The notes under the pieces were generated by a model that had not been told where the DNA came from, made no database searches, and was given only the letters and a program-made list of their open reading frames with translations. Source: Mobula hypostoma (taxonomy: Eukaryota). Taken from it: a stretch of 64,000 nt of DNA. The stretch spans positions 130,946,001 through 131,010,000 of the forward strand of contig NC_086097.1 in NCBI RefSeq assembly GCF_963921235.1. The letters are read 5' to 3'. Below, piece after piece: positions 10,731-61,445 of the stretch. The translations under genes were made by a program, and so were the position numbers. Each line of letters opens with the position of its first letter. Within the stretch, counting starts at the first letter, position 1.

Positions 10731-11099
10731 CTAAACATTATTTCTCAAAATGAACTGAGCTCGTTTGATATTACCTTCTGCATTATCCCAGCAGAAATAG
10801 TTGCTGAAAACCTTCTCCCAGATTACTGCAAATGGTCAGCAAAGAAAAATGGATTTGCATGCTTATTCTGAATACAGTGTAATACAAAGTTTAGCCTAGT
10901 TCTATAGAACATACACAGTTAACTGCCGTCAGCAGAACATCAAATTCTTAACTTTGCATGACAAATCCACCGCATTTCAACAATTTAATTTAAAATTAGT
11001 GGTCCTCTTTGCAATGGCAGAGGACATGCATGGTTAAGAAATGTTGTATGTTTTAATCAACATGTTTACCTGTGCAGTCTCAACCAGATTCACGATACC

Positions 11100-11190
11100 A
11101 AGCAAGACACACAAAATGTTGGAGGACCTCAGCAGGCCAGACAGCATCCATGGAAAAAAGTACAGCTGACATTTTGGGCCAAGATTTCTA
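11100..11190 (-). mobile_element. Penelope-like terminal repeat remnant
   Basis: acacacaaaatgttggaggacctcagcaggccagacagcatc aligns with the 17571-17670 arm. Confidence 0.7.
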
Positions 11191-14100: not shown

Positions 14101-15544
14101 GGCATGGTTTATTTGGAAATAAATAAGTGCAATTCTGTATGAAAGCAAAGTACATGGAAGTTGTGTATTATTAGTCCAGGGAAGGAAATGGGAAGAGACA
14201 TGATTTTCATTGCATCAATGAAGCGGCTGCCAAATCAGACCAGCTCTCAAGTTCATTAAATTCTCATTAAGGCTACCCTAGGTAGTAGACTTAGGAAGCA
14301 GGAAAATTACTACACCAGTATATGCCAGGATTCTCTCCAAGTCAGTGCCAGTTGAAACAGGGAAAATAGAGGCACAAAAACCAAGCATAATTAAACAAAA
14401 TAGATTTTACGATATAACATTTCTTTAGAGTTTGTCAATTGCAATTTCAATCATAAGTCGAATATTGCCATATTGCAAAATATCACATGAACTTCATTTT
14501 TTTTGGTCTTTTCTTTGTATAACAATTGTCATTTAGACATACTGACCGAAAATGTTTAAATAGGATGGGAAATAAAAATAATACGCAGGTTAATATTGAC
14601 ACTCAATTCTGCTCTGATCACCATCTCATTGAAAAGCAATCCATCCCCAGTGCATATTCCCATCCTATCCCCTTCTCCATAGTTTTATTTTCCTTTTACA
14701 ATCCTGTGCAAGATCAAATACAGCTTATTAGTATCAGAATCTTAAACAGCATCAGCACAAGGATAAGAACATGCAAAAATGCAAGAGCACTGACAGTCAT
14801 GCACCAAAGAAAATACTTGGCTTAGCTGCAGTTATCTATTTTGAAGTCCATGTCCAAATTAATGAATTTATCAGTTTGTGAAAATAACACTTGAAGTTCA
14901 CTTTTAAGCGGTTATTGAGACAAAACCATTTCTTCCTCAAAACCAGATCTGAACTTTGAAAGGCTAGTGAGGTTCACAGCCTATCAAAATCAAATCTTAA
15001 GACGTACACCTGGCTAGAGATCACAGAGAAATCGAGCTAATTTCTTGCTCCAGAATTGGTAGATTGAGGTTAACTGCAATAAAGCAGTTAAGGTATAACT
15101 TGGTTTATTCAACACAAATCAGGCGCTAAACATAGCATCTTTTATTGTGCTCTGAATAAAATGTTGAACTGTTGGCACCCTTAATATAATATGATGGGCA
15201 TAGGATTTTTCTTTTAATATTCTTAGTGTCATTTGGTCAATACATTCAGTAGAGTTAACACTTTTTCCCCAAACACAGCAGCATTGCCACTCATGTGACC
15301 CCTGGAGTGAAACACCCTTTCAATTTTTTCCCCACCTGACTCAGCTACAACCTATCCTTTCTCCGCTCCCCACAACCCTCCCTTCCCAAACACACACCCA
15401 CCTTGCAGCAGAAGGACCCTAAACTGTGATTATTTCCCTATTTTACAACTACAATTACACTTCAATAACTCAAGAGAAGGCAAATGAGACTAGCTCAGAC
15501 AGACATCATGGACGAGCTGGGCTATGGGGCACTTTCCATGGCGA

Positions 15545-15630
15545 CACACACACAAAATGTTGGAGCAACCCAGTAAGTCAGGCAGGACCAATGGAGATAA
15601 ATAAACAGTCTTTGTTTTGGGCAAAGGCTG
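15545..15630 (-). mobile_element. Penelope-like terminal repeat remnant
   Basis: acacacaaaatgttggagcaacccagtaagtcaggcagg...aaacagtc belongs to the same family, more decayed. Confidence 0.6.
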
Positions 15631-17172
15631 TTTCCACACTATGATGATCGGTTATGGGCATTAAGGTAATGAAAAGCATTATATATAATGCAAATTTTCT
15701 TAAAATTAATTAGCTATATGTAGGTTAACTAATTAATCTAACTCAAATTATACTTAAGCTGTGAAGAAAATATATCCATAACTATACAAAACAAAACTGA
15801 CACAGGTACCATCAAAACAAACACCCCAATCTTTACTCTAGGAACCAATGAAGTTTGTGCCAAATGTGAGAGTTTGCAAAATTATCTTCACCATACTCAT
15901 CCTTTCATTTGATCTTTCCATCATTTTCCTGAAATTTTGCTAATAACGCGAGTCACAGTTGTGATGCAGATGCCAAAGCCTTTTGTTTTGGAGATCAGGT
16001 CATTAAAAACATACCGATCAAAATGCCTTCAAAATATATTCTGTATTTTAAATTTCAATGAAGTGAAATGCACTTAAATTCAAAATAAATGATTTTTCCT
16101 ACTTTTAAGATTCACAAGGCAGGAACCTAGTAGCACTGCTAGATAAAGACAGTCAAATAATCCTTAGTGAAGTCATGTGATCATTGCAATCACACTTGAG
16201 ACATGAAAATGCTGGTAAAATAAGCTGACCAATTTCAGATCTTCAAAACAAACTCTGGCTAAATCATGTAAATAAATTGCTCAGAATTCAAAATCAATAA
16301 TGGACTTGTTATACAAGGCCTTTGATGGTTTTGTTCAACTAATCAGCTTAGATATTAAAATGCAGCTGACTCAATATGAAATGTCATTCCTTACTGCCAG
16401 ATTTAAATATGCTCTATTTACTTGAACAGTACACAAAAAATATTACAGATTTCTCTTGCTGAATGTGGCAAATAAAACTCATTTGGACTGAGTATTTCAA
16501 AAGCAGAACACAGCGGCTGAACAGAACACATGCAGTAATTATTAACTAAACCCACATACAAATGCTGGCACTCTAATAGCCAGCAATTCCTTTCTCCACA
16601 TGGTAAGTTCAATATTTTAACTATTTTGCTAAAATTCAGAGATTTAAGGAGCCAGAATTTTAAATACCCTGGAGTAAAAGGTAGATGGCCACTAGTATAA
16701 AACTACAGAGGTCAATCTTTCCATTCCACAAACATCTGTTTTCTAATACTGAATTGCTGTTTATAACTGTGGGTTTGCTTGTGTTTCTCCACATTCCCAT
16801 TTCCCATGGATTCACAGATGGCTCAGAAAGCACTGAACTTGGACTTTCTTTAGGATCGTGTACAGACAGACCATTCAAGAACACAAAAAGGCTAGCAGGT
16901 GGCTGCAAATTACTTTTGAAAAGTAAAATAAGTACTTTTGAGCAGCAAACTGTGCCAGTTTTACTTTAAAAAGTTGGGGGATTGAAGAACAGTCATCTTA
17001 AAATAGTAACAGTAATCTTAAGAGTAAAATAATCAAAGTGCTTAGTCTCAAGGTAACAAAATATATCAAGAACATAAAGTACACCAATCAGCAACAAGAG
17101 TTAATTGATTTGACATTTCATAGTAATATTTTTTTAAAGCAGCACATACAGACTGAGATTAAGAAGCAGTAT

Positions 17173-17348
17173 TCACAAACTTCTGGAGGAACTCAGGCCA
17201 GGCAGCATCTAGGGAAAAGAATAAACAGTCAACGTTTCAGGCCAAGTTTTGGCACGAAGCACCAGTTTACTCTTTTCCTGGCCTGAGTTCCTCCGGCATT
17301 TTGTGCAGATTAGCTTGATTTCCAGCATCTGCGGATTTTCTCTTGTTT
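17173..17348. mobile_element. Older inverted Penelope terminal-repeat remnant
   Basis: ggaggaactcaggccagg is the reverse complement of cctggcctgagttcctcc. It ends in the tail atttccagcatctgcggattttctcttgttt. Confidence 0.75.
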
Positions 17349-17635
17349 GAAATTAAGAGGCATCAACTATTCCTGCAGGTTACAATCCAAAATCTACGGA
17401 GGCCCTGCACACACAAGCAGGTACAGTATCTGGCTGACCAACGGAATGGATTTGCCGGCTACTATAGCATCCTCTGCCGTGTGGACACTGCCAACAGCTG
17501 CACTTCTGACTTGCAAACTGTATGGGTTATAAACATGTAAACATGAGGAATTCTGCAGATGCTGGAAATTCAAGCAACACACATCAAAGTTGCTGGTGAA
17601 CGCAGCAGGCCAGGCAGCGCCTCTAGGAAGAGGTA

Positions 17636-17673
17636 CAATCGACGTTTCGGGCCGAGACCCTTCGTCAGGACTA
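17636..17673 (-). ncRNA. Minimal type I hammerhead ribozyme motif, sense to the ATP9B pre-mRNA
   Basis: Mirror copy of the motif above. The single difference (GACU to GAUU) converts a helix I G-C pair to G-U; the core is intact. Confidence 0.75.
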
Positions 17674-17753
17674 ACTGAAGGAAGAGCTAGTAAGAGATTT
17701 GAAATCTCTTACTAGCTCTTACTTTCAAATCTCTTACTAGCTCTTCCTTCAGT

Positions 17754-17791
17754 TAGTCCTGACGAAGGGTCTCGGCCCGAAACGTCGACTG
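17754..17791 (+). ncRNA. Minimal type I hammerhead ribozyme motif (Penelope-associated)
   Basis: UAGUC-CUGACGA-A-GGGU(CUCG)GCCC-GAAA-C-GUC^GACUG. Catalytic core intact, helix I AGUC/GACU, 4-bp helix II, palindromic ACGU in place of helix III. Activity is not shown. Confidence 0.8.
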
Positions 17792-17970
17792 TACCTCTTC
17801 CTAGAGGCGCTGCCTGGCCTGCTGCGTTCACCAGCAACTTTGATGTGTGTTGCTTGGGTTATAAACAGTTCACAGGAATGGAACTCTGTTGCAACTCAGG
17901 AGGGACCTGTATTACAAAAATACCAAGTTCCATAAAAATGTAAATACAAAATCAATTTATAAATTATCTA

Positions 17971-18643
17971 TAGGGTTTAGTACCCCATAACCAAAATGCC
18001 AGAAATGTTTCGGATTTTGGAATATGTAATGAGATAGCTTGGGATCGCCATCATTTCTGATTCTGAATTTATATGCTATCAGTAAGCAGTCTGTCTTACA
18101 TTTGTTTATCACACATGTACTGCTGCAGCTATTCATTGTGTTAGATTTTCATCAGCGATGATCTTGGCAAATTCAATGAATTTCTCTGCTGCTTTGTGGT
18201 CAGGAGATGCTTTATCACTACAAATTTTAAAAAATTTAATGATGTGTCTTTTCCTAAATTTCTGCAACCAGTCTGCTGAATATTCACAATTACCTTCAAT
18301 TTTCAGTTTGTGATAGATCTTTGCTTGCTTCATGATCAGCATACTGTTAAGTGGCATATGCTCATTCCGACACTGAATCCATTTTCAATACACACTCGAG
18401 ATCTTCATTTTTTGTTTTATACAGTGTATTTTTATTTTTCCTTTCTCATTAACTTTTGTTCATTACATCAGTGTGGTCACTTCTTAGAACTGTCTGTGGT
18501 GTGCAAAGACCTGCGCATTGCCTCAGAGTTTTCCCAGTGCTTTGTGGAATATTCCATCTGTGACGCCATGTCAGCACTCAAAAAAATTTAAAATTTTGGA
18601 GGCTTTTGCTTTTTGGAATTTCGGATAAGGAGTACTCAACCTG
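17971..18643 (-). mobile_element. Tigger4/Zombi-like (pogo) DNA transposon, internally deleted
   Basis: Right end ...ggataaggagtactcaacctg+TA and a degenerate left TIR after TA. ORF 18133-18357 encodes the CENP-B-type HTH segment MPLNSMLIMKQAKIYH.LKIEGNCEYS..WLQKFRKRH.IKF.KIC.DKAS.DH.AAEKF. Confidence 0.85.
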
Positions 18644-18764
18644 TAGTAAAAATTAATTTTTGAAAATTTAACACAATTTAGGATTTAGATTGGCAGATAC
18701 CAGAACATACTTGCTCTGTTTAAGTGTAATCAATAAGAATAGGCAGCAAAAACTCTGCCATGAT

Positions 18765-21700
18765 TATTTTCAACACAGGTGCCTCGCAAGGCCGCATCTT
18801 CAGCCCCCTACTCTACTCCCTAAACACTCTGATGTGAGACAAGATTCTACTTTAACTCCATCTAGAAGTCTGCAGATGACACCACCATTGTGGACCAACT
18901 GTCAAACAACAATGAGTCAGATGACTGGAAGGAGATAGAGAGCTTCTGATATAGTGTTCTGATTTATTGTTGCCGGAGATTTTAACCACGCGAACCTCAA
19001 GTTAGTGCCCCCCAAATTCCATCAGTATGTGGACTTTGCAACGAGAGGGGAGAATGCGTTGGCCCTTGTTTATACAAACATCCCTAACATGTACTGGGCA
19101 GAGCCCCACCCCCACCTCGGTTACACAGACCACATCTCTGTTATGCTAATCCCAGCATACAGACCGCTTGTCAGATGCTCCAGACCAGTTCTGAAGCAGG
19201 TGAAAACTTGGCCAGCAGGAGCCATCTCTGCTCTTCAAGACTGCTTTGAGCACAATGACTGGCACATGTTCAAGGAGGCTGCAACCGATGGCGACTATCA
19301 GCTCAGAGGAGTACACAGCATCAGTGACTAGCTACATCAGCAAGTGCATTGATGATGTCACTGTGTCCAAGATCACTACACGCTCTAATCAGAAGCCAAG
19401 GATGACCGCGGAGGTGCGTACGCTGCTGAGGGCCCGTGACTCTGCCTTCAAAGCAGGCGACAAGGCAGCCTTAACAACAGCGAGGGACAAGTTGTCCCGG
19501 GCCATCAGAGAGGCAAAGTGTGCACACGCCCAGCGAATCCATAGCCACTTCCAGGACAGCGGCGACACGCGGCGCATGTGGGAGGGCTTTCAGGACATCA
19601 CCAACTACAGGACAACATCACCCGCCTGGCTGGTGATGCCTCCCTCCCAGATGCTTTGAATAACTTCTACGCTCATTTTGAGGCGGAAAATGACGTGGCG
19701 CCATGGAAGACCACCCCTCCTCCAAATGACTAGGTGCTGCGTCTTACCCTGGCCGGTGTGAGGAAAGCTCTATGCAGGGCCAACCCACAGAAGGCTGCTG
19801 GACCAGACAATATTCCTGGCAGAGTGCTCAGAGGATGCGCAGACCAGCTGGCAGAAGTTCTCACTGTCATCTTCAACACCTCGTTCCAACGTGCTTCAAG
19901 GCCACCACCATCGTCCACATGCCAAAGAAGTCTTCAGTGTCCTGCCTCAATGACTACCGTCCCGTTGCACTCACATCCGTCATCGTGAAATGTTTCGAGA
20001 GGCTCGTCATGAGGCACGTAAAGACCCTGCTGTCCCCTCACTGGACCCCCTGCAGTTCGCTTATCATCCCAACCGCTCAACAGACAACACCATCGCCACC
20101 ACCCTCCACCTGGCCCTCACCCACCTGGACAAAAAAGACACATACGTTTGAATGCTGTTCATAGACCTCAGTTCAGCATTCAACACAATCATTCCTCAGC
20201 ACCTGATTGGAAAGCTGAAACTGCTGGGCCTGAACACCTCCCTCTGCAACTGGATCCTAGACTTCCTGACTGGGAAACCTCAGTCAGTCCGGATTGGGAG
20301 CAGAATCTCCAACACCATGACACTGAGCATGGGGGCCCCCAAGGGCTGTGTGCTCAGTCCACTGCTGTTCACGCTGCTGACCCATGACTGTGCAGCAATA
20401 CACAGGTTGAATCACATCATCAAGTTCGCCGATGACACGACCGTAGTGGGTCTCATCAGCAAGAACGACGTCAGCATACAGAGAGGAGGTGCAGCGGCTA
20501 ATGGACTGGTGCAGAGCCAACAACCTGTCTCTGAATGTGAATGAAACAAAAGAGATAGTTGTTGACTTCAGGAGAGCATGGAGCGACCACTCTCTGCTGA
20601 ACATTGATGGCTCCTCCATTGAGATCATTAAGAGCACCGAATTTCCTGGTGTTCACCTGGCAGAGAATCTCACCTGGTCCCTCAACACCAGCTCCATAGC
20701 CAAGAAAGCCCAGCAGCGTCTCTATTTTCTGCGAAGGATGAGAGAAGTCCATCTCCCACCCCCCATCCTCACCACATTCTACAGACAGCATCCTGAGCAG
20801 CTGCATCACTGCCTGGTTCGGGAATTGCACCGTCTCGGATCGCAAGACCCTTCAGCGGACAGTGAGGTCAGCTGAGAAGATCGTGGTCTCTCTTCCCGCT
20901 ATTACAGACATTTACACCACACGCTACACCCGCAAAGCTAACAGTATTGTGAAGGACCCCAAGCACTCCTCACACAAACTCATCTCCCTCCTGCCATATG
21001 GCAAAAGGTACCGAAGCATTCGGGCTCTCACGACCAGACTGTGCAACAGTTTCTTCCCCCAAACCATCAGACTCCTCAATAATCAGAGTCTAGACTGACA
21101 TCTACATCATTTGTTATTATATTGTAATTTGTCCTCTACTGTGCCTATTGTCTTGTTTATTAATTATTGTACTGCCCTGCACGGTTTTGTGCACTTTATG
21201 TAGTCCTGTGCAGGTCTGTAGTCTAGTGCAGTTTTTATGTTGTTTTACGTAGTCTAGTGTAGCCTTGTGCTGTCTCACATAGTCTAGTGTAGTTTTGTGT
21301 TGTTTCATGTAGCACCATGGTCCTGGAGGAATGTTGTTTCATTTCTACTGTGTATTGTACCAGCAGCTTATGGTCAAAATGACAATAAACTTGACTTGAC
21401 TTGAACAACACTTCCCTCAATGTTAGCAAAGCTTCACAAAAGCTTGGTGCACGCTTCTATTTGCATCAACATTGCAGAAGTGAAGAGTTGAAAGCTTCAA
21501 GGTCCTAGAAGTGAATACTAAAAAGCCTGTCGTGGTCTAACCACACAGACACAACAGCTAAGAAAGATCATCAGCACCTCTACTTCCTTAGGAGACTAAA
21601 CAGATCAGGCAATACTCTCTCAAGCTTCACCAATTTTTCATCAATGCAACGTTGAACACATTCTATTCAAATACTTCATGGCTTGCTATGGCAACTGCTC

Positions 21701-24575: not shown

Positions 24576-24627
24576 CACTTTTCTCTGATGTCCGTAAAAA
24601 TATCATGTCAGCAGGAATGCGCTGATT
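24576..24627 (-). CDS. ATP9B: ATP9B coding exon (52 bp; actuator domain)
   Basis: cag|AAT CAG...AGT G|gtaag. Translates NQRIPADMIFLRTSEKS(G), the IPAD motif that precedes the DGET exon of P4-ATPases. Confidence 0.96.
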
Positions 24628-26106: not shown

Positions 26107-26982
26107 GCTAGAACTATTATGTTACCCATAATAACACCTTTACCAGGTGTTGAACTTCGAGCATGGATCAGTACATTGAACTATGATATTGTGGCCATTA
26201 CAAATACTTAGGTGAGAGGGAGACAGGAATGGATGCTTAATGTTCCAGAGTTTCAATGTTCCAGAAAAGATAGTGGGGGAGCTGCACTACTAATCAAGCA
26301 CAATATCGCATCTGCACTCAGAGGGAAAATAATGGAGTTCTTATCCACTGTCTATATGGGCAGAAATAAAAAAAAAGGGTGCAATCACTCTGATGGGATT
26401 GTACTATAGACTCTCCAGTAGCCACCGGGACATTCAGGAGCAGGTATGCGGGGAGATTAAGGAAAGGTGTAAAAACAATAGGGTTTTGTCATGGGGGACT
26501 TCGATTTCCCCAACATAAAAATGTGACCTACCTTCTGAGTGCAAGAGGTTTAGTTGGGGCGGAATTTGTTAGATGCATCCAAAAAGTGTTCTTTTGTAAA
26601 TAATCCAACAAGAGGAGGTGCTGTACTGGACCTCATGTTCAGTACTGAGCCTGGACAGGTGACTGACCTTTTTAGTGGATGAACAGTTAGAGAACAGTGA
26701 CCACAAGTATTCAAGTTTTACGTTATACCTTGTGGAAAAAATATTAAATTGGAGCAGGGAGAGTTACTAGGGAAATGCCATTTGTGGGCAAGTCCAAATC
26801 TGACATGTGGAGGGTATTTAAGACCAACTGCACAGAACACAAGCTGAGAAAGCTAGAATCAAACAGAGCTCTTGAGGATTATAAAGAAGCCAGAAAAGAA
26901 CTCAAGAGAATTAGGAAAGCCAAGAGGGGCTATGAAATATCCTTGCAAGTAGGATTAAAAGGAAACGCAAGACATTTTCATA

Positions 26983-28523
26983 CAGATGTCCCCCGCTTTT
27001 CGAACATTCGCTTTACGAAACCTCACCGTTACGAAAGACCTACATTAGTTCCCTGTTTTCGCTAACAGAAAGTGTTTTCACTGTTACGAAAAAAGCAGCA
27101 CACGATAAAAAACATCATGTGCCCCGAGGAGCCGCTCTCCCCTGGATTCAGAACGGCATTCTCACCGGCATTGCTTAACCATGTGCCTGTGAGCAGCCGT
27201 TTGCAAGATGATTTCAATGGTATCGGAAAAGCCTAAAAGAGCTCGTAAGGGTGTTACACTTAGCATAAAACTAGACAGAATTAAGCATTTTGATCGTGGT
27301 GTACAAAGTAAGGACTAAGTGAGTTTGGCATGTGGAAGCTGACGAAGATGATGTTGAAGAGGTTTTGGCATCCCATGAACAAGAACTGATATATGAAGAG
27401 CTGATGCAATTGGAAGATGAAAGGATAACAATCAAAACCGAATGAGTAATGATAAAGTATGAATTTAATTTTGAAAGGGTACATCAGTTTAGGGGATATT
27501 TGCAGATGGTTTGAGTGCTTACAAAGAACTGTATGATAGAAAAATGCGCAAGTCTCAGCAGTCAAGCAAGCCTTCCACATCAGCCACAGCAGACGACAAC
27601 CCTCGACCTTCGACATCGAGGCGGGCAGTCATAGAAGAAGATGAGCTGCCTGCTCTAATAGAAACAGACGACGAAATGACACCCCAGTGTCCCACCACCC
27701 CAATACCCAGGTCACAGACAGATACCGATTCGCAGAGAATGCAGCAGTAGCCAGGAGACACACAGTGCATCTCTAAAAAAAAAGCCGAAATAAACATGCT
27801 AATTAATTAGGTGCCGCCCGACACGTAATTGTCAGCCCAGATCAGAGGCGATGCAATCGGCACTGATCCGGGCCGACAATTACGTGCTGGGCGGCCCCTA
27901 ATTAATTAGCATGTTAATTTCGGCTTTTTTCTTAAAGATGTGCTGTGTGCCTCCCGGCTACCGCTGGACCCCTGCACGCTTCGCAGATCGGTATCGGTTC
28001 GCTGCCCGGAGGGTGGGGACCACTGCACCACCCAAACTCCGATGACTCAGTCTAACACACCATCATCTGTGTGCTCCATGCTTTCCCAATTCCGGTAAGT
28101 GATACTACACTGTACATATATATTTTCTACTTTATATCAGCTGTGTATTTTTACATGTTATTTGGTATGATTTGGCAGCTTCATAGCTTAAAGGTTACTG
28201 GAGAGTGCTTGCGCCGTGTTTTGCCGAGAGCGCTTGCGTGAGATTTTCACTACAGAGAACAGTTCAGGCAATGATTGTGGAAAAGTATTTCTACTTTATA
28301 TAAGCTGTGTATTTATCATGATATTCCTGCTTTTACTATATGTTACTGTTATTTTAGGTTTTATGTGTTATTTGGCATGATTTGGTAGGTTATTTTTGGG
28401 TCTGAAAACGCTCACAAAATTTTCCCATATAAATAAATGGTAATTGCTTCTTCGCTTTACAACATTCCGGCTTACGAACCATTTCATAGGAACGCTCTAC
28501 CTTCGGATGGCAGGAGAAACCTG
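26983..28523 (+). mobile_element. Non-autonomous Tigger/pogo DNA transposon with an internal palindrome
   Basis: TA target duplication (26981-82, 28524-25); imperfect TIRs CAGATGTCCCCCGCTTTTCGAA / CAGGTTTCTCCTGCCATCCGAA; transposase C-terminal remnant DDVEEVLASHEQEL..EELMQLE. Excision restores the host CR1 frame. Confidence 0.88.
27745..27966. repeat. Imperfect inverted repeat (about 100-bp arms) inside the Tigger-like element
   Basis: aaaaaagccgaaataaacatgctaattaattagg...cacgtaattgtcagcccagatcag is mirrored by ctgatccgggccgacaattacgtg...cctaattaattagcatgttaatttcggctttttt. Confidence 0.9.
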
Positions 28524-28884
28524 TACATACCTCAAGAGCAAGAGGATAACTAGGGAGAGGGTAGGACCACTCAAGGACAAACCAGGGGACATTTGCTTGG
28601 ATGCAGAGGATGTGGGTGAGGCCCTTAATGAGTGCTTTACATCAATATTTACTAAGAAGGAAATAGAGGGTAAGGAAATCAGTGCTGAGCATACTTCTGG
28701 TAAGGTGGCAGCATGTTCAGACCCAGTAGCCTCTCCGGGGCCAAACAAATGTGTCTTTGGCTTTTTTTATAATCGCACAACAATGATGGACATTAAGAAC
28801 TTTAAGTACTGCACATCTATCCCCATCAGCAAGCGGCTCATTGAAGGTGGACCTGAAGGAGCTGCACTTATTTCTTCAGGGGTT

Positions 28885-31800
28885 TGAACGGGGCATGACT
28901 GCACAAGCACATGGAGGTCGGCCAGTGAGAACAGCGGGAAGAGTTTAAAAGGAAGACAGATTTACAGAGCGGGTGTCAGAGGAGCGGGCGTCAGAGGAGC
29001 GGGCGACGGAGTAGTGGGAGACAGAGTAGGAAGGCTTTGGCTCAACAGGGCTTAAGCAATCAGAGGTTGAGGCCAGGTAGGTTATCTGTTTAAAACAAAG
29101 ACAGAAAGTACGTGTGTGAGGCCAGTTTGCTGTGCTCGGTGTCAGATGTGTGAAGTCCTGGAGACTCCCAGCCTCCTGGACAACCACATCTGCACCAGGT
29201 ATGTTGAGCTGCAGCTCCTTTGGGACCTGGTTACGGAACTGGAGTTGCAGCTCGATGACTTTCATCTGGTCAGGGAGAGTGAGGAGGTGATAGAGAGGAG
29301 CTATAGGCAGGTAGTCACTCTGGGGCCTGGGGAGACAGATAAGTGGGTAACAGTCAGGAGAGGGAAGGGGAAGCGTCAGGTACTAGAGAGTACCCCAGTG
29401 GCTGTCCGCCTTAACAATAAGTACTCCTGCTTGAGTACTGATTGGGGGGGGTACGGCCTAGCTGGGGAAAGTGACAGTGGTGGTGCCTCTGGCACAGAGT
29501 CTGGCCCTGTGGCTCAGAAGGGTAGGGAAAGGAAGAAGATGGCAGCAGTGATAGGGGACTCTATAGTTAGGGGGCAGATAGGCGATTCTGTTGACGCAAG
29601 AAAGAAATGCAGATGGCAGTTTGCCTCCCAGGTGCCAGGGTCCGGGATGTTTCTGATCGCGTCCACAATATCTTGAAGTAGGAAGGAGAACAGCCAGAGG
29701 TGTGGTACATATTGGTACCAACTACATAGGTAGGAAAAGGGAGGAGGTCCTGAAAACAGACTACAGGGACTTTGGAAAGAAGTTGAGAAGCAAGACCTCA
29801 AAGGTAGTAATCTTGGGATTACTGCCTGTGCCACGTGACAGTGAGTATAGGAATAGAGTAAGGTGGAGGATAAATGTGTGGCTGAGGGATTGAAGCAGGG
29901 GGCAGGGATTCAGATTTCTGGATCATTGGGACCTCTTCTGGGGAAGGTGTGACCTGTGCAAAAAAGAAGGGTAGCACTTGAATCCAAGGGGAACCAATAT
30001 CCTGGTGGGACAGTTTGCTAAGGCTACTGGGGAGAGCTTAAACTAGAATTGCTGGGGGGGGTGGGAACCGAACTGCAGTGACGGAGGGGGGGTGGGAACC
30101 AAACTGAAGTGACGGAGGAAAGGGAGGTTCGCTCACAAGTGTAGAAAGCTTGGAGACAGTGCGAAAGGGAGAATAGGCCAATAGGCGCTCAGACCGCTGG
30201 TTTGAGATGTGTCTATTTTAATACCAGGAGTATTATGAATAAGGCGGATGAGCTTAGAGCTATGATGTTGTGGCCATTACAGAGACTTGGATGGTGCAGG
30301 GGCAGAAATGGCTACTTCAAGTGCCAGGCTTTAGATGTTTCAGGAAGGTTAGGGAGGTAGGCAAAAGAGCTGGGGGTGTGGCACTGTTGATCAGAGATAG
30401 TGTCACAGCTGCAGAAAAGGAGGAAGTCATGGAGGGGTTGTCTATGGGGTCTCTGTGGGAGAAAGTTTGGAATAGAAAGGAGTCAATAACTCTGCTGGGT
30501 GTTTTTTTTATCGACCGCCCAATAGTAATGGATATCCAGAAGCAGACAGGGATACAGATTCTGAAAAGGAATAATAATAACAGGGTCATTGCAGTGGGAG
30601 ATAGTAATTTCCCAAATATTGAGTGGCATCTCCCTAGAGTGAGGGGTTTAGATGGGGTAGAGTTTGTTAGGGGTGTTCAGGAAGGTTTCTTGACACAATA
30701 TGTAGATAAGTTTACAAGAGGAGAGGCTGCACTTGATCTGATATTGGGAAATGAACCTGGTCAGGTGTCAGGTCTCTCAGTGGGAGAGCATTTTGAAGAT
30801 AGTGATCACAATTCTATCTCCTTTACCATAACATTGCAGAGGGATAGGAACAGACAAGTTAGGAAAACGTTTAATTGAAGTAAGGGGAAATATGAAGCTA
30901 TCAGGCAGGAACTTGGAAGCATAAATTGGAAACAGATGTTCTTAGGGAAACATACGGAAGAAATGTGGCAAATGTTCTGGGGATATTTGCGTGGGGTTCT
31001 GAATAGGTACATTCCAATGAGAAATTGAAATGATGGTAGGGTACAAGATCTGTGATGCACAAAGGCTGTTATAAATCTAGTCAAGAAGAAAAGAAGAGCT
31101 TATGAAAGGTTCCAAAAACCAGGTAATGACAGGAGTCTAGAAGATTATAAGGCCAGCAGGAAGGAGCTTAAGAAGGAAATTAGGAGAGCAAGAAGGGGCC
31201 ATGAGAAGGCCTTGGCAGACAGGACTAAGGAAAACCCCAAGGCATTCTACAAGTATGTGAAGAGCAAGAGGATAAGATATGAGAGAATAGGAACAATCAA
31301 GTGTGACAGTGGAAAAGTGTGTATGGAACCGAAGGAAACAGCGAAGGTACTTAATGAATACTTTGCTTCAGTATTCACTAGGGAAAAAGATCTTGGTGAT
31401 TGTAGCGATGACTTGCAGTGGACTGAAAAGCTTGAACATGTAGATATTAAGTAAGGGGAAGTGTGGGAGCTTTTGGAAAGGAACAAGTTGGATAAGTCAC
31501 CGGGACCGAACAGGATGTACCCCAGGCTACTGTGGGAAGCGAGGTGGGAGATTGCTGAGCCGCTGGCAATGATCTTTGCATCATCAATGGGGATGGGAGA
31601 GGTTCTGGAGGATTGGAGGGTTGCGGATATTGTTCCCTTCTTCAAGAAAGGAAGTAGGAATAGCCCAGGAAATGAAAGGCCAGTGAGTCTTCCTTCAGTG
31701 GTTGGTAAGTTGATGGAGAAGATCCTGAGAAGTAGGATTTATGAACATTTGGCATAATATGATTTTAGGAATAGTCAGCATGGCTTTTGTCAAAGACAGG

Positions 31801-33025
31801 TCATGCCTTACGAGCCTGATTGGACTTTTTGAGGATGTGACAAAACACCTTGATGAAGGTAGAGCAGTAGATGTAGTGTATATGGATTTTAGCAAGGCAT
31901 TTAATAAGGTACCCCATGCAAGGCTTATTGAGAAAGTAAGGAGGCACAGGATCTAAGGGGACATTGTTTTGTGGATCCAGTACTGGTTTCCCCACAGAAG
32001 GCAAAGAGTGGTTGTCGACAGTATGGAGGCCAGTGACCAGTGGTGTGCCTCAGGGATCTGTTCTGGGACCCCTACTCTTTGTGATTTTTATAAATGACCT
32101 AGATGAGGAAGTGGAGGGATGGGTTAGTAAATCTGCTGATGACACAAAGGTTGGGGGGTGTTGTGGATAGTGTGGAGGGCTGTCAGAGGTTACAGCGGGA
32201 CATTGATAGGATGCAAAACTGGGCTGAGAAGTGGCAGATGGAGTTCAACCCAGATAAGTGTGAGGTAGTTCATTTTGGTAGGTCAAATATGATGGCAGAA
32301 TACAGCATTAATGGTAAGACTCTTGGCAGTGCGGAGGATCAGAGGGATCTTGGGGTCCAAGTCCATAGGACACTCAAAGCTGCTACACAGGTTGACTCTG
32401 TGGTTAAGAAGGCATATGATGCATTGAGCTTCATCAATCGTGGGATTGAGTTCAAGAGTCAAGAGATAATGTTGCAGCTATATAGGACCCTGGTCAGACC
32501 CCACTTGGAGTACTGCGCTCAGTTCTGGTCGCCTCACTGCAGGAAGGACTTAGAAACCATAGAAAGAGTGCAGAGGAGATTTACAAGGATGTTGCCTGGA
32601 TTGGGGAGCATGCCTTATGAGAATAGGTTGAGTGAACTCGGCCTTTTCTCCTTGGAGCAATGGAAGATGAGAGGTCACCTAATAGAGATAAACAAGATGA
32701 TGAGAGGCATTGATCGTGTGGATAGTCAGAGGCTTTTCCACAGGGCTGAAATGGCTAGCACAAGAGGGCGTAGTTTTAAGGTGCTTGGAAGTAGGTACAG
32801 TGGAGATGTCGGGATAAGTTTTTTTTTAAACACAGAGTGGTGAGTGCGTGGAATGGGCTGCCGGCAGTGGGGGTGGAGGCGGAAACGATATGGTCTTTTC
32901 AGAGACTCCTGGATAGCTACATGTAGCTTAGAAAAATAGAAGGCTATGGCTTAAAGCCTAGGTAGTTCTAAGCTTTGTGGGCCGAAGGGCCTGTATTGTG
33001 CTGTAGGTTTTCTATGTTTCTATGT
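28885..33025 (+). mobile_element. Near full-length CR1 LINE (5'UTR, ORF1, ORF2 APE+RT), inactivated
   Basis: ORF1 has a Cys-rich finger and leucine zipper (CARCQMCE...ICTR..ELQLL.D.V.ELE.QL) and SGNH esterase motifs (IGDSIV, VHIGTN). ORF2 has [31 protein letters not shown]. Tail is (TTTCTATG)n. Multiple stops and frameshifts. Confidence 0.95.
30054..30118 (+). repeat. About 30-bp tandem duplication in the CR1 ORF1-ORF2 linker
   Basis: gggggggtgggaaccRaactgMagtgacggagg occurs twice. Confidence 0.85.
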
Positions 33026-34049
33026 TACTGCGCATTACGGAAAGACATCGGATTTGGTGCATTAAGACGGTGTGCAGTCTAACAGTGAGTGTGTATCTTT
33101 GACCCTTCTCTTGCGATCCCAAGACCATACTGCACATTGATAATGTAAAATGCTGCACATCCATTCCCCTTATTTTGTTGGAAAAACAGACGGCAGGGGA
33201 GCTGTGTCATCTTGGTTGTAGCGAGGATGAGACCTCAAGATGCAGGCTTCCTCTGCAGGAGTCCAGGAGGGGAGATGCCAAAGGCAGTATAGTGCAGCAC
33301 CATGGTGGGTTGCGAACTAGCTCCTACCGTTGATGATGTCCTCCAGTGTTTGCTTGATGGGGAGGCAAGTTGGATTGCATGCATACAATCGTTAGCGGGC
33401 TGCTGAAAACTGCTTGTTCTTCCCAATAGCAACCATGCACCATCAATTTACAGGACATGCCACTCAGTGATTTCGGCTATATACTTATTTTTGTGTGGCT
33501 GTATGTTTACTGCTATCTTATAAGTGCTCTATGCAGCTTTTGCTATGTGTGACTGTTGGTACTATGTTTTGCACCTTGGCCCAGGAGGAATGCCATTTTG
33601 TTTGGCTGTATTCATGGATGGTTGAATAATAATTAAAGTTGAACTTTGAAATGGAAGGGAATTTTGAGGTAAAGTAGGAGGTAGTGTTAAGTCTCTTAAA
33701 GAGCATTAAGGTGGATAAGACCCAAGGCCTGATGGGATATACCCCAGTTTATCAAGGAAAACAAGAGAAGAGGTTACTGATCTCTTGACAATATTTTCAT
33801 GTCCTGTCTAACCACATGCACAGACCTAGAAGACTGTTAAGTAGCTAATGTTGATCCACCATTCAAGTAAGGAACAAGGGATAATCCTGGAAACTACAGA
33901 TCAGCGAGTCTCGTGTCAGTGGCAGGGAAGTTGCTGAAGAGAATTCTTAGGGATAGGATTTATGAACATTTGGAATACCATGGCCTTATTAGGGAGAGCC
34001 AGCATGGCTTTGTGCAGGGCAAGTCATGTCTTACTAATTTGATTAAGAA

Positions 34050-34190
34050 TTGCAAATGACAGAAATCCAAAATAAGAATATGGAAAATACTCCAGTCAGG
34101 TTGCATTTGACTGAGGGTCTTCAGTCTGCATATTTCTCTTCCCACAAATGTGGTCTGGCCTGCTGAATATTTTCAGCAATTTTCTGTTTT
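34050..34190. mobile_element. Decayed Penelope-like terminal remnant
   Basis: tggaaaatactccagtcaggttgcatt ... tggcctgctgaatattttcagcaattttctg in a loosely inverted arrangement. Confidence 0.5.
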
Positions 34191-34890
34191 TACTATATGA
34201 AAAGACTCAAGTTTAGTGAAAAATGGTGAAGAAAATTGGAAGGTGAAGAGAATTTAGAGAACATTTTGACATTCCTTCTCATCTGCAGCACTTGATACAG
34301 GAGAATATACAAACGTTTGTAAAATACAACATGCTAATACTGTAAATACACTGTTCCTCCAACCTATGAATTCATGCTACATAGTTCAGCAATTTAAGAA
34401 GATCCCAGTTATGCTGCTTGGAAACTAAGCATTTATCCACATGACCCTTTCTATACCAGATAGATCATACATTTTCTCCTACCAAACTGGCAAAGATCCA
34501 ACTAACAGCTCTCAGGTTACTGGTATCATCCGAACAAACTTGCAATGGAATATTGTCAACAAGTGGATGAAACCCAAGTAAAAATCATGCACCTCAGCTG
34601 TCAAAGAGCAGAAGATTGAATGGCAGCTGCAGAGCTGGTTTTACTATGGAAAATTATTCATTACCCGTGTCTATATATGCACATGCAATATTTATTCACA
34701 GGTTATTCCATACTTTCCTTACAACTAACACGATTCCTCTTACTGATTAAACACATACAATTTAAAGTCAACATTTCTTAAAAGAACTTGCTCATTTTTA
34801 TATGCTACAAATTTATTGTCCAGTATTCATTAAATTTATAGTTAATGAAATGATTTAATCAATAAGCTTCTAATTTTCCTATATAGCTTA

Positions 34891-35748
34891 TGTTACGTAC
34901 CCCGTAACTGGGTTGCCAAACCAGCAGAAATGGATCACTCAGTTGGAGTCTGGAGTACTAGAACTAAGAAAGTTTTATTACAGAAACAAGCAACACAGTA
35001 ATCGAAAGGATAATAAATGCAACAGTTCAGTGATGATAAACACACATGTGCACAGAATTAAGATAACAGCATCAATCAAGCTCTATCGTTGTCTAGGGGT
35101 AAATGACCAATTTCAAAATGACTCAAAGTTCAGTCCAGTTTGTAGTTCAGTTCGCAGTAATCGTTGCCATGGCGATGGACAAGGTGGGGGAAGAGAGACA
35201 TAGAATAGGAACAACTCATCATTCAGCACAGCTTCACTCACAGACCAGCGGGATGGCTCACAAACAGCATTTGGGCGGGTCCTTGGTGATGTCACCTGAG
35301 GTCACCGACTGTGACCCCTCCTCCAGATGCGGTCGATCCTCTGCAGTGAACCCGGCACCCAGGCAAGGGCGGACACACACCGGGTTCCCGCTGATCGTAC
35401 CTTTCCACCCTGTGCGTTGTCCGATTCTTCTCACCACTCGTGAGAGGCGCACCGCTTCCAGGGTCTCGTTACCTCGGGTGGCGTGTGTGTCTGTCTTAGC
35501 GAACCTGTCCCTTTTTATCCCCCTGCTGGGGTATCGCCTGTCCATCACTTCAAACAGTTCAGGGCTCAAAGGGGGGAGCCGCTCCAGACAGCTCTTCCTC
35601 CCACATCCCTTCATTACACATCTCCAGACGCTGCTCCATTGTTCCTTATCTCTCCTTCCCCTGAGGGCAGGTGGCAGACCAACTGCTGATGCCACTGATG
35701 CTAGCCCAGGCCAGCAAACATCTTAATTTTATGTGTATTCTCGTAACA
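34891..35748 (-). mobile_element. Solo LTR (858 bp), probably Gypsy or ERV class
   Basis: TG...CA ends with a 7-bp inverted repeat TGTTACG/CGTAACA; CpG-rich. On the minus strand there is a TATA-like GGATAAAA at about 35512-35520 and AATAAA at about 34975. Confidence 0.8.
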
Positions 35749-36086
35749 GTTCATATTACAAGGCAGAGCAAATTTTGAAAATACAGCATTAATATGTTGC
35801 TTTTTATATCCTCATGTATCAAATGCTGCAGATGAGGATAAATGGCAAGCTTTGAAAAGTCAGTCTAAATTGTAAAGTTATTATCATGCCTGAATTACCA
35901 AACAGGCCAAGTTGCAGGTGCGCTCAAGGATCACTACGTAAAGAATTTCCCAGCTTTGCAGACTTATAGTAACCTGCAGCTGTTTGATACCCGAGATATA
36001 TAATCTCATCTTGTACCTCCTCATTTTAAGACCTTCCTTCAAACAGTTCTTAATTCGAAAAATTTAACGCTCATTTTTGTCTGATT

Positions 36087-37965
36087 AATCAGGAGGGCTA
36101 AAAAGAAGACATGAGGTTGCCTTGGCAGTCAAAGTGAAGGATAATCCAAAGAGCTCTTACAAATATATTAAGAGCAAAAGGATTATAAGGGATAAAATTG
36201 GTCCTCTTGAAGATCAGAGTGGTCGGCTTTGTGCAGAACCAAAGGAAATGGGGGAGATCTTAAATAGGTTTTTTGCGTCTGTATTTACTAAGGAAGCTGG
36301 CATAAAATCTATGGAATTGAGGGAATCAAGTAGTGAGACCATGGAAACTGTACAGATTGAAAAGGAGGAGGTGCTTGCTGTCTTGAGGAAAATTAAACTG
36401 GATAAATCCCCGGGACCTGACAGAGTGTTCCCTCGGACCTTGAAGGAGACTAGTGTTGAAATTGCGGGGGCCCTGGCAGAAATATTTAAAACGTCGCTGC
36501 CTACGGGTGAAGTGCCGGAGGATTGGAGAGTGGCTCATGTTGTTCCATTGTTTAAAAAAGGATCGAAAAGTAATCCGGGAAATTATAGGCCGGTGAGTTT
36601 AACGTCAGTAGTGGGTAAGTTATTGGAGGGAATACTGAGATACAGAATCTACAAGCATTTGGATAGACAGGGGCTTATTAGGGAGAGTCAACATGGCTTT
36701 GTGCGTGGTAGGTCATGTTTGACCAATCTGTTGGAGTTTTTCGAGGAGGTTACCAGCAAAGTGGATGAAGAGAAGGCAGTGGATATTGTCTACATGGACT
36801 TCCGTAAGGCCTTTGACAAGGTCCCACATGGGAGGTTAGTTAGGAAAATTCAGTCGCTAGGTATACATGGAGAGGTGGTAAATTGGATTAGACATTGGCT
36901 CAATGGAAGAAGCCAGAGAGTGGTGGTAGAGAATTGCTTCTCTGAGTGGAGGCCTGTGACTAGTGGTGTGCCACAGGGATCAGTGCTGGGTCCATTGTTA
37001 TTTGTCATCTATATCAATGATCTGGATGATAATGTGGTAAATTGGATCAGCAAGTTTGCAGATGATACAAAGATTGGAGGTGTAGTAGACAGTGAGGAAG
37101 GTTTTCGGAGCCTGCAGAGGGACTTGGACCATCTGGAAAAATGGGCTGAAAAATGGCAGATGGAGTTTAATACTGACAAGTGTGAGGTATTGCACGTTGG
37201 AAGGACAAACCAATGTAGAACATACAGGGTTAATGGTAAGGCACTGAGGAGTGCAGTGGAACAGAGGGATCTGGGAATACAGATACAAAATTCCCTAAAA
37301 GTGTCGTCACAGGTAGATAGGGTCGTAAAGAGAGCTTTTGGTACATTGGCCTTTATTAATCAAAGTATTGAGTATAACAGCTGGAATGTTATGATGAGGC
37401 ATTGGTGAGGCCGAATCTGGAGTATTGTGCTCAGTTTTGGTCACCAAATTACAGGAAGGATATAAATAAGGTTGAAAGAGTGCAGAGAAGGTTTACAAGG
37501 ATGTTGCCGGGACTTGAGAAACTCAGTTACAGAGAAAGGTTGAATAGGTTAGGACTTTATTCCCTGGAGCGTAGAAGAATGAGGGGAGATTTGATAGAGG
37601 TATATAAAATTATGGTGGGTATAGATAGAGTGAATGCAAGCAGGCTTTTTCCACTGAGGCAAGGGGAGAAAAAAACCAGAGGACATGGGTTAAGGGTGAA
37701 GGGGGAAAAGTTTAAAGGGAACATGGGGGGGGCTTCTTCACACAGAGAGTGGTGGAAGTATGGAATGAGCTGCCAGACGAGGTGGTAAATGCGGGTTCTT
37801 TTTTAACATTTAAGAATAAATTGGACAGATACATGGATGGGAGGTGTATGGAGGGATATGGTACGTGTGCAGGTCAGTGGGACTAGGCAGAAAATGGTTC
37901 GGCACAGCCAAGAAGGGCCAAAAGGCCTGTTTCTGTGCTGTAGTTTCTATGGTTCTATGGTTCTA
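36087..37965 (+). mobile_element. Young 5'-truncated CR1 LINE with an uninterrupted RT domain
   Basis: 428-aa ORF with [35 protein letters not shown]; frameshift at about 37400; (TTCTATGG)n tail. Confidence 0.96.
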
Positions 37966-38040: not shown

Positions 38041-39074
38041 GTAGAAATAATGTATGTACAGTGTAGCATCACTTACAGGAATCGGGAAGACAGTGCAGAG
38101 CACACTGATGATGGTGTGTTAGGCTGAGTCGTCGGAAGCTGGGGTGGTGCAGTGGCCCCCCACCCTCCGGGCCACAGACCAATACCGATCTGCGAAGCAT
38201 GCAGGGGTACAGCGGTGGCCGGAAGGCACACAGCACATCTTTAAGAAAAAGGCTGAAATAAACATGCTAATTAATTTGGTGCCGCCGTGAATCGGTATCT
38301 GTCGGCGGCCTGTGGGTTGGGGTGGTGGGACACTGGGGTGTCATCTCATCGTCGTCTGTTTCCACTAGGGCAGGCAGCTCATCTTCTCCTATGACTGCCC
38401 GCCTCGATGTCGAAGGTCGAGGTTCGTTGTCTGCTGTGGCTGATGTGGAAGGCTTGAGAAATGACAGTATGCTTGACTGCTGAGCCACGCGCATTTTTAG
38501 CTCATACAGTTCTTTGTAAGCACTCAAACCATCCTGCAAATATGCCCTAAACTGACGTACCCTTTCAAAATTAAAGTCGTACTTTATCATTGCAGCGAAA
38601 ATCTCACGCAGTTGCTTCACTTTCTGCATTCGGTTTCGATTGTTATCCTTTCCTCTTCCAATTGCATCAGCTCTTCATCTATCACTTCTGGTCATGGGAT
38701 GCCAAAACCTCTTCAACATCATCTTCGTCAACTTCCACAAGCCAAACTCACTTTGTCCTTACTTCGTTCACCACGATCGAAACGCTTAATTATGTCTAGT
38801 TTTACGCTAAGTATAACACCCTTACGAGCTCTTTTAGGCTTTTCCAATACCTTAGAACTCATCTTGCTAACGGCTGCTCACAGGCACATGTTTAAGCAAT
38901 GCCGGCAAGAATGCCGTTCCAAATCCAGGGGAGAAGCTTGGCTGCTCGGGGGGCGCGCTGCCTTTTTTCGTAACAGTGAAAAAACCTTCTGTTAGTGAAA
39001 ACAGGGAACTAATGTAGGTCTTTCATAACAGTGAGGTTTCGTAAAGCGAACGTTCGAAAAGCAAGGGACACCTG
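38041..39074 (-). mobile_element. Second, truncated copy of the Tigger-like element at 26983-28523
   Basis: Reverse complement aligns with about 26983-28130. TIR ...cgaaaagcaagggacacctg is followed by TA; the other terminus is missing. Confidence 0.88.
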
Positions 39075-39700
39075 TAAAACCCATCACTGGAAAAAATGCA
39101 GCAACGTATGGAGTATTTTGATATGTATCCTTTTGCCCCCAAATTTTTAATTTACATCTTTAGTTTGTGCACTTCTTTCATGCAAAGTTATTTTTAATAA
39201 CTTTGGCATGCTTGCCTCCTTTGTATTTACCACACTGCCTTTTTATTACAACCTCATGTACACTTCCGTACATTATGAAAATTTCATTACCATGCCAAGT
39301 AGTAAAATACACCAATAACTTTATGCAACATCACAGCAGAAGTATCTGATTCTCCTCCATTCTTGAGGATAAAGATGACTGTCATTTGCCTCCATGACAG
39401 TTTAACACATTCAAAGACAAATATAAAAAGGTATGGATATTACTGAACATAGGGGACTCCTCTGATCATACCACTGATACTTTCCAATCACCTGTAGCAG
39501 ATGTAGCATTGATGGAATTACCAATGTACTTTTAGATGCAATTATAAACAATTTTTACAAAAAGTCTTTCTCTCTTTTTCGTATTAGTCAATTGTATTTA
39601 ATAGTGAACAGTGCTGCAGGAAGCATAATAAGGCTTTAGTAAAACAATAGTAATTACTTATTAATATGCAAGTCATTGCAGTAAATGCATAAATACACAC

Positions 39701-45385: not shown

Positions 45386-46972
45386 TCCAAGAGTAGACCA
45401 TCAAAGACCCCATGAACACTGTTGCAACAGGACATTAATCAATGAAAGCACATATTCAATAATGTTAGTGTGGAGGGATTCCAACTCTTCTTTGGGCTGT
45501 CAATCTGCATCAATGGATTACAAGTCTCTGAGTAAATGCAATACAATGCAAATACCACAAATTTCTATCTCTCTGCCACAGACTCTTGCCAAGCTATAAC
45601 TGTTTGCTTCAACTATAGACAGCTAGCTTGTGGTCCATACACTGATTGCTGGATTTAGTTGTTACTCTGTGTCAACATTATTCTGATTGCCCTTGAAATG
45701 AGTTGCAGTTTCAGGTGGTGGTTAAGAGTCAATCTTACTGCAATGGGCCTGGAGCAAGAGTAGGTAAGACTTCCTGCTCTTAAAAACATGACCTACCGAA
45801 CAGGGGTTGGGGGGGGGGGGCATATTGGCATATTGGTCTTCATTTGGTGAGAAATGCCAAAAAGGTAAAAGCACTTTTTAAAAGAAGATAGCCACAACAT
45901 TCCCCCCTAAAGGCTCCGATTAAAAGGAATATGCTCTTGGATTAGTAAGCATACAACTTTTCAGAGGAAGCAGCTGAGCCAAAGAAATTAATTTTAAGAT
46001 TTTTGAAATGGTCATAAACTTTCAAATGCCCCTTTCAGCTGAATACTCTGTACATCATTTAAACACAAGACGTTACATAATGTAATCTTCTTGACTGTGT
46101 TAAAGGTCAATTTCTGGAGTTTTGAATGAAAGGATATACATGTAAGCTTTTTCTCACTACAATAAACTAGTTAGTCTACAGGCAAGGATCTGCTTTCCTC
46201 GACAATTGAAGATTAGTATAATAATTGATTTGAACTCTGCCCAAAGAGTGTTCTATTACTATGGTATTATACTATTAAATTTCTCCAATACAATTTTTCC
46301 CCAACAGTCCAAATGAAAAATGTTTAAAAAAATATGGTATTGATGTGTAGTTTCAAAGTCAGCTATGTATTTCTCTTCATACTTGTAAATAGCTAATGAC
46401 TTGAAAAATGTACGTCTTTTCTTTCACAGTACTCATACTCCTTTAGCTCTTAACATAACTATATCTGGTAGTATTTAGCACGCATTCAGACAAGGCAAGT
46501 ATATAATTTAAATACAAGTGAGATTAAATTTGGTCTGAATCAATGTAATCCAAACCAAATTTGCTCTTCAGTGCAAACAGGATATTTGATGACTACTGAA
46601 CTTCTGCACTACTGAACATTTTATTGAAGGTTGTTCAATGTACAAACATTAATAGTATTGAATCTAGATTTAAGCTTGCTTGCAAAATATATTCCACGAT
46701 AAGTTTAAATCTCATCACATATTGTGAAAAAATAGCCAAAACTATGTACTGTTTAAGACAGTAGTTCCCTCACATTTCTGATTGCCTTCACATCAAATTG
46801 TTTATATGGGATATGCTAAAATGTTCTTAAAATGTGCAAAATTTCTTTACCCATTAAAAGCAATTGAAAACTACCAGTTCTACAAACAAATTTAATTTAA
46901 AAAATTTTCTTTTATATACAAAAGGGTAACATCTTAAAACATTCCAGAAGGGTAGATATAAATTTTACTTAC

Positions 46973-47086
46973 CAAAGGAGCCCAGTATGTATACAGGTAG
47001 CCAATCTTCAATGATGGGACAAACTGTGAACATGATACCACCAGAAAATAAAGATTCAAGAAAAACTTGAATTGTTGATATAATAC
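46973..47086 (-). CDS. ATP9B: ATP9B coding exon (114 bp; TM1-TM2 region)
   Basis: cag|...|gtaagt. Translates [38 protein letters not shown], phase 0/0, in frame with neighbouring exons. Confidence 0.97.
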
Positions 47087-53020: not shown

Positions 53021-53171
53021 CCCAGGTACAAATGTAAAGAGGTTGTACTTCTGGTTTTTAATTGCATTCCTTGGATATTTTTCCTCGCACTTCTCTGGAT
53101 GTCCCAGCCATACTGTGCGAGCTTTAAACTGTTGCTTTCTCTGACAGATGTTGGCAAGCCAGTCACAGCAA
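53021..53171 (-). CDS. ATP9B: ATP9B coding exon (151 bp; human exon 3 equivalent)
   Basis: Minus strand reads ttcag|T TGC TGT GAC...GTA CCT GGG|gtgagt and translates [50 protein letters not shown]. This matches the recalled ATP9B N-terminal region (ARTVWLG.PEKCEEK.PRN.IKNQKYN) better than ATP9A. Confidence 0.95.
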
Positions 53172-57674: not shown

Positions 57675-57925
57675 TCTCTCTCACCTCCCAGCTTCATAGT
57701 TCATCAACCCACACTCCCTCAGCTCGTCTCACCTATCATCTGCCAGCTTGTACTCCTTCCACTCACCTCACTTTCTTATTCTGGCTTCTGCTTCTTCCTT
57801 CCAAGTTCTGACAAAGGGTCTTGGCCTAAATGTCAACTGTTTATTCCCCTCCATAGATGCTGCCTGACTTGCTGAGTTCTTCCAGCATTTTGTATGTATT
57901 GCTACTGATTCCAGCATTTTCTGTT
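57675..57925 (+). mobile_element. Penelope-like 3' terminal fragment with decayed hammerhead
   Basis: agttctgacaaagggtcttggcctaaatgtcaact...atagatgctgcctgacttgctgagttcttccagcattttg. Confidence 0.75.
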
Positions 57926-61342: not shown

Positions 61343-61445
61343 TAACACACAAAATGATGAAGGAACTCAGCAGGCCAGGCAGCATCTATGGGGGGGGGGG
61401 AGTACAGTTGACGTTTCATGCAAAACGTCTGAGTGCAAAACACAA

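Follow-up and report, generated by a model that had tools for sequence, protein, structure and literature searches.

The locus described here, in the 64,000-nt stretch of Mobula hypostoma DNA that we analysed (the window), is very probably a Neptune-type Penelope-like insertion in which two truncated end copies of the element lie back to back and the hammerheads are likely inactive passengers. A reading made from the letters alone (the sequence-only reading) had proposed two minimal hammerheads on opposite strands of an ATP9B-type intron, and both were found where it had placed them: a minimal type I motif at 17636-17673 on the minus strand, where it would be part of the ATP9B pre-mRNA, and another at 17754-17791 on the plus strand, antisense to ATP9B. 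The plus-strand core, CUGACGA-A-GGGUCUCGGCCC-GAAACGUC, occupies 17759-17786 with a predicted cut after 17786, while the minus-strand core runs from 17668 to 17641 and is predicted to be cut between 17641 and 17640; a 5-bp reading of helix I (UAGUC/GACUG) is also possible. The attribution to the Penelope type also stood, as every feature listed for such motifs in PMC4209133 is present in both copies: the core C3-A9 and G12-A14, the NUH triplet, an extra base after A9, G10.1-C11.1, and a palindromic 15.1-16.1. A structural descriptor of the motif gave 109 matches in 1.46 Mb of DNA, many of whose loci had been preselected for the motif, and 0 in the reversed control, so the motif is not a chance occurrence. 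The Rfam search that had been suggested as a check covered 15000-21000 and matched none of the hammerhead families at E<=10, yielding miRNA-type hairpin models alone, below their cut-offs; a miss of this kind would be expected because the motif is without helix III.

The two motifs belong to an inverted repeat whose arms, 17571-17704 and 17723-17856, were found by repeat search to be 134 nt each with 1 mismatch and an 18-nt spacer, and whose folding z is -30 against 200 shuffles. The claim that the mirror copies differ by a single change of a G-C to a G·U pair was borne out, and the sole arm-to-arm difference is located at 17638, where helix I of the minus-strand copy, the one in the ATP9B pre-mRNA, carries the G·U at a cost of ~2.3 kcal/mol. 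We considered this pair as possible covariation and rejected it, as the partner arm keeps G-C in 9/9 pairs in which one arm has the G·U, this locus included, with arms chosen for likeness to this locus. The helix I G·U occurs in 3 of the first 100 exact cores listed, and judged on sequence the change at 17638 most likely represents a later point mutation.

The sequence-only reading was right about the motif pair but drew its extent too narrowly, at 17636-17791; the element is larger, and a target duplication, a one-sided tail, and a templated junction had been left out. The insertion comprises 319 nt between two copies of a 13-nt target duplication. The left copy, 17523-17535, is identical to the right copy at 17855-17867, the sequence has no third occurrence in the window, and the first two bases of the right copy are common to the arm end. 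Next to the left duplication lies the 32-nt 3' tail of the element (17539-17570, minus strand), identified by family 3' ends and by the published 30-40-nt tail and present on this arm only. It is followed by the left arm (17571-17704, minus strand), a 5'-truncated 3' end (pLTR) that is sense to the ATP9B pre-mRNA and was assigned by family identity. Comparison with family copies resolves the junction (17702-17722, plus strand) into a 19-nt copy of the element's sense strand (17702-17720), which joins the left arm via a common AAA, and then the restart of the right arm. The right arm (17721-17856, plus strand) is an inverted 5'-truncated copy that ends short of the tail. In a likeness sample made up of the best 41 of 2,471 candidates, two of which are the locus's own arms, the left arm is 97-100% identical to the 40 places scored. 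Contigs carrying a second species label cover each flank plus 22-23 nt of the element, with 8 differences over ~425 nt; a contig spanning the whole insertion was not among the matches listed. These overlaps, which at the flanks are short (below 31 letters), hint that the insertion predates the split from the second species label. At 17164-17348, 190 nt from the insertion, lies an inverted pair of a related Penelope-type end that is older and decayed; its junction falls inside the hammerhead, and neither core is whole. Decayed related Penelope-type pieces on both strands are also present at 11085-11184, 15579-15626, 57769-57917, 61344-61417, and 62566-63078, and consist of ends and one coding remnant, with cores broken or missing.

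Longer copies of the family run upstream into a frame of reverse transcriptase (RT) and GIY-YIG type with a CX4CXXC linker. The RVT_1 match in copy L066 has an E of 1e-6 and scores 29.1 bits, just under the cut-off of 29.6, and the nearest Atlas clusters carry HTH_animal plus GIY-YIG, at 0.95. In copy L033 the linker, CKRNKCYTC, and a GIY-YIG-like VIY...LYIxET were read by hand from the DNA. Pfam gave no match for two of three ORF fragments (L052 and L060), and a PDB search with the RT-EN fragment gave no match. A CX2-5CxxC between the RT and the endonuclease is described as a mark of Neptune and Nematis elements (PMC8557442), and the CX4CXXC linker of this family agrees with a Neptune-type clade.

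The arrangement is that published for endonuclease-bearing (EN+) Penelope-like elements, in which the main copy is accompanied by a 5'-truncated copy in inverted orientation, a tail of 30-40 bp is found at one end only, and the target duplication is short (PMC8557442, PMC3846280). With the EN+ inverted-pLTR insertions of these papers and of PMC11167929, the present one has in common the truncated inverted neighbour, the one-sided tail, the short duplication, the hammerhead in the pLTR, and, in longer copies, an ORF of RT then GIY-YIG. It differs in that both arms are cut to ~135-170 nt, so that no coding sequence is left and the unit is a near-perfect hairpin, and in that the family has ~100,000 intact cores. 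The motifs likewise share with the minimal hammerheads of metazoan Penelope-like elements (PMC4209133) the C3-A9 core, the extra base between 9 and 10.1, G10.1-C11.1, the palindromic 15.1-16.1 without helix III, and a helix I of 4-5 bp; here, however, a G·U pair closes the 4-bp helix II, and most copies of this family carry G10.1·U11.1. Dual motifs on opposite strands, 100-700 bp apart, are reported in Schistosoma (PMC4209133). The animal non-LTR retrozymes (bioRxiv 10.64898/2026.07.22.740005) are also short, non-coding units derived from Penelope-like elements and bearing type I hammerheads, but they are direct tandem repeats capable of forming dimers, with two hammerheads on the same strand. 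In the inverted unit found here, either strand has just a single motif, and we rejected identity with a retrozyme. The paired inverted layout as such is already published for the class and is common in this genome. Literature searches gave no paper on Penelope hammerheads of cartilaginous fish, to which the host probably belongs, or on inverted Neptune pairs in sharks, although the supplements of PMC4209133 may list cartilaginous-fish motifs.

A genome-wide search with the core descriptor returned 99,518 motifs, ~one per 35 kb, compared with 42 in the control, and the exact 34-nt motif has 5,541 occurrences. The first of these counts is ~10 times those given for coelacanth and Xenopus (4,000 and 9,000 motifs; PMC4209133), which were obtained with different descriptors. 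Inverted pairs with a tail on one arm and none on the other account for 13 of the 39 closest other copies in the likeness sample, a share that is somewhat inflated as one pair can be sampled twice, and the duplication is at least 9 nt long in 10 of these 13. Among the first 100 motifs listed, neighbouring intact motifs within 3.5 kb of each other are in the orientation of this locus in 16 cases, the opposite one in 4, and tandem in 2 (p = 0.012). Genome-wide, 570 loci have two cores at most 12 nt apart and form tighter hairpins than this one. ATP9B itself contains 9 young inverted insertions, in 3 of which both cores are intact. Another ATP9B intron contains a second hairpin, tighter than this one, in which both cores are intact and the duplication is 13 nt long, at contig positions 130787711-130787939, ~158 kb before the window start.

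How might two opposed arms arise in a single event? In the mechanism that we favour, the element's protein would nick both target strands 13 nt apart and prime reverse transcription from each nick. One cDNA would start at the tail end and the other at an internal start ~33 nt upstream, and both would stop after ~135-170 nt and be joined by microhomology with a short slip. Because every pLTR carries a hammerhead, two opposite-strand motifs and a hairpin would arise automatically, and the insertion would likely persist by drift. An element from anole cuts and extends both target strands and has two internal RT start sites that bound the tail; with a dead hammerhead it inserts normally, the ribozyme not being needed in vitro (PMC11167929). 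The 3' ends of this family fall at the tail in 37/99 copies and 28-46 nt earlier in 54/99. Across 25 pairs, arms differ by 5.4% within and 6.7% between pairs (p < 1/5000), and a two-base variant common to both arms of this locus occurs at 7 places genome-wide, two of which are these arms. The likeness within pairs and the rare variant indicate that the two arms come from one source.

That common source would also be expected if the first cDNA had folded back and been copied into the second arm of the same insertion, or if the arms had been homogenised later by gene conversion. The ends of the two arms here are no more than 2 nt apart, the rare two-base variant is common to both, near-equal arms and tiny loops are seen in many pairs, and a self-priming model of the fold-back kind is favoured in PMC3846280. 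However, the longer arm may be either one: the tail-less arm extends 2 nt farther upstream here and hundreds of nt farther in copies L035 and L040, whereas in L033 and L036 it is the tailed arm that is longer. This variability is easier to reconcile with two separate primings than with the copying of one arm from its partner. Gene conversion is not general, because typical pairs differ by 5%, and the arms of the 25 pairs decay without repair. We therefore regard fold-back copying or conversion as unlikely, if still a serious competitor, and retain priming from two nicks as the preferred account.

If the arms are ordinary products of integration, the question becomes whether the motifs they carry would cut RNA. 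The sequence-only reading had held that each transcript contains one motif together with its antisense, which is true on either strand, and that the ribozyme would be sequestered in the resulting duplex. Our folds agree: the predicted pair probability of helices I and II is 0.0 in equilibrium models of the whole minus-strand RNA and of four nascent lengths, which are without kinetics, tertiary contacts, or protein. Even in isolation the motif is predicted to hide its own core, GACG pairing with CGUC at 0.98-1.0, and this equilibrium fold has -13.5 kcal/mol compared with -9.5 for the open hammerhead form. The classical dimer is predicted at -17.9 kcal/mol and an alternative dimer at -35.3. Published work points in the same direction: single minimal hammerheads showed no cleavage in vitro and dimers were weak (PMC4209133, PMC6765202). 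In the ATP9B pre-mRNA, the sense motif would have no tandem partner with which to form a dimer and would hide its own core, and the antisense arm, transcribed just earlier, would cover it. As modelled, both motifs are likely unable to cut RNA. Masking by the antisense arm is probably not needed for this outcome, given that single motifs are reported as inactive, the isolated core is predicted to be self-hidden, and a lone sense copy is present in ATP9B intron 1 (see below). Since the anole motif needs the protein of its element in order to cleave (PMC11167929), cleavage that is assisted by protein or occurs through a trans dimer among the ~100,000 copies may take place. Splicing survives intronic cleavage by a slow hammerhead, though not by the fast HDV ribozyme (PMC2995048, citing Dye 2006 and Fong 2009).

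The host is a minus-strand P4-ATPase gene spanning ~386 kb, followed by NFATC1 and CTDP1-type genes on the same strand. Its exons in the window, placed with short motifs, are 53021-53171, 46970-47086, and 24576-24627, all on the minus strand. The last of these is an ATP9B-type exon bounded by AG...GT on the 5' side of the host intron, and the next exon lies ~10 kb before the window start, so the intron is ~35 kb long. Two of the three exons match Pfam PhoLip_ATPase_N, and one matches ATP9A/Neo1 in the PDB. The name ATP9B, in preference to ATP9A, fits the NFATC1 and CTDP1-type neighbours together with the human gene order, with which a gene listing is compatible. Strand skew was too noisy for orienting genes around the locus. 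The introns of the gene also contain large decayed LINE-type reverse transcriptase remnants at 28444-37785 and 19204-20872. A separate self-inverted stretch of 225 nt with 85% identity lies at 27742-27966; the repeat on its flanks (26981-28130) recurs in inverted orientation at 38041-39076, and this stretch and its flanking repeat probably belong to another transposon family.

The sequence-only reading went on to suggest that the layout explains why the gene tolerates the insertion. In the form in which we considered it, this would mean that lone sense hammerheads harm the pre-mRNA and are purged, while paired ones survive through the antisense block. The predicted duplex masking is what such selected self-silencing would call for, and two small counts lean its way, neither of them significantly: young insertions are paired in 13/21 cases inside ATP9B and NFATC1 and 4/11 outside (hand tally, p = 0.27), and of five lone intact cores a single one is sense and 4 are antisense (p = 0.375), with one antisense core in the presumed first NFATC1 intron. 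Against this, ATP9B intron 1 contains a lone sense copy whose core is intact and whose target duplication measures 14 nt, although only 3 bp of its helix I are left, the 10.1-11.1 pair is G·U, and 1.1 kb away there is an unrelated pair. An early impression that lone sense copies were absent disappeared once ATP9B exons 1 and 2 had been mapped. Automatic classing of the 964 kb surrounding the locus put the lone copies within ATP9B and NFATC1, whatever their age, at 16 sense and 16 antisense; the antisense figure is nearer 18, as two young antisense copies beside pairs were classed as paired. The proposed comparison of intronic orientation, here within these two genes, gave no bias among all lone copies and an antisense lean (4/5, too few to decide) among those with intact cores. 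Pairs with two intact cores make up 8/22 motifs around the gene (764 kb) and 32/100 at the contig start (the first 100 descriptor matches listed, covering the first 3.2 Mb); pairs decay freely; and single motifs are reported as inactive (PMC4209133). The geometry is also uninformative about ATP9B, since the antisense arm is transcribed first on either strand. The layout is instead the usual product of Penelope-type integration, and the claim that it explains tolerance found no support. Selected self-silencing is in our judgement very improbable; it is neither needed nor supported, and weak selection may be at work, the comparison covering two genes and few intact cores.

A different benefit of pairing would be to hide a splice-acceptor-like stretch on the element's sense strand, or for the hairpin to serve as a double-stranded substrate for editing or small RNAs. 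A long pyrimidine tract ending in CAG does lie directly before helix I (17723-17752 and the mirror arm), the intron of a D. virilis element ends at helix I (PMC4209133), and it is at this AG that the truncation of the lone intact sense copy of intron 1 falls. Yet ATP9B intron 2 has a lone sense copy of 745 nt in which the tract is retained, and lone copies have no overall strand bias (16 vs 16). No donor matching the acceptor-like tract of the element was identified. These readings appear very improbable, and we continue to regard the pair as an integration product whose motifs are likely inert.

In helices I and II of 66 copies that were not chosen by exact match, no pair is altered on both sides; these copies are one young family, in which little covariation can show. 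Changes are nevertheless unevenly placed, with 10/132 in the loop and 10/396 at non-CpG stem positions (p = 0.015). A G·U replaces G-C at 10.1-11.1 in 40/66 of these copies, and G10.1·U11.1 is the commonest form genome-wide, with at least 43,114 exact copies. The other CpGs are largely intact in these 43,114 copies, which argues for a variant of the source rather than decay.

A motif downstream of the cut has 57,201 matches genome-wide; 5' ends were located, to within a few bases, in 99 of the first 100 on the list, all from the first 5.3 Mb of one contig. At the hammerhead's 5' edge, from -126 to -141, the ends form a cluster: 25/99 fall in these 16 nt and 11 in the following 39 nt (p = 6e-7). 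Of the 25 clustered copies, 11 carry a flag as lone, which is doubtful in one or two cases, and the self-complementarity of the motif favours inverted junctions at the 5' edge of the hammerhead. A further 41/99 copies extend beyond -400, and the arms of this locus end at -166 and -168, outside the cluster. Two ways in which the cut itself could leave a trace were rejected. Ends defined by the cut site would fall within -100 to -105, where 2/99 were found and ~2 expected, and 1/99 lies exactly at the cut; hairpins with their apex at the cut number 44, similar to the ~57 estimated for a single 5'-edge junction (5/50 listed, of 570). No published report of 5'-end clustering at the hammerhead edge was found in the openly available main texts. 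A tentative interpretation, which is possible although we would not yet bet on it, is that the hammerhead serves mainly as a fold at which reverse transcription stops and from which mini-hairpins like this one start, that its cut does not form the 5' end, and that the top subfamily has traded G10.1-C11.1 for G·U. Within the same interpretation, a transcript start just before the motif may instead set where copying ends.

This locus alone carries little weight, being one among many thousand such hairpins. The question of intron orientation that it raised has wider reach, since a purging of lone sense motifs from introns would indicate that host RNA is cut by minimal hammerheads in vivo; the small sample here does not show such purging. 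The role of the hammerhead in Penelope-like elements is a question that this family could address, as its ~100,000 dated copies permit direct counts of 5' ends, of tail use, and of orientation in introns.
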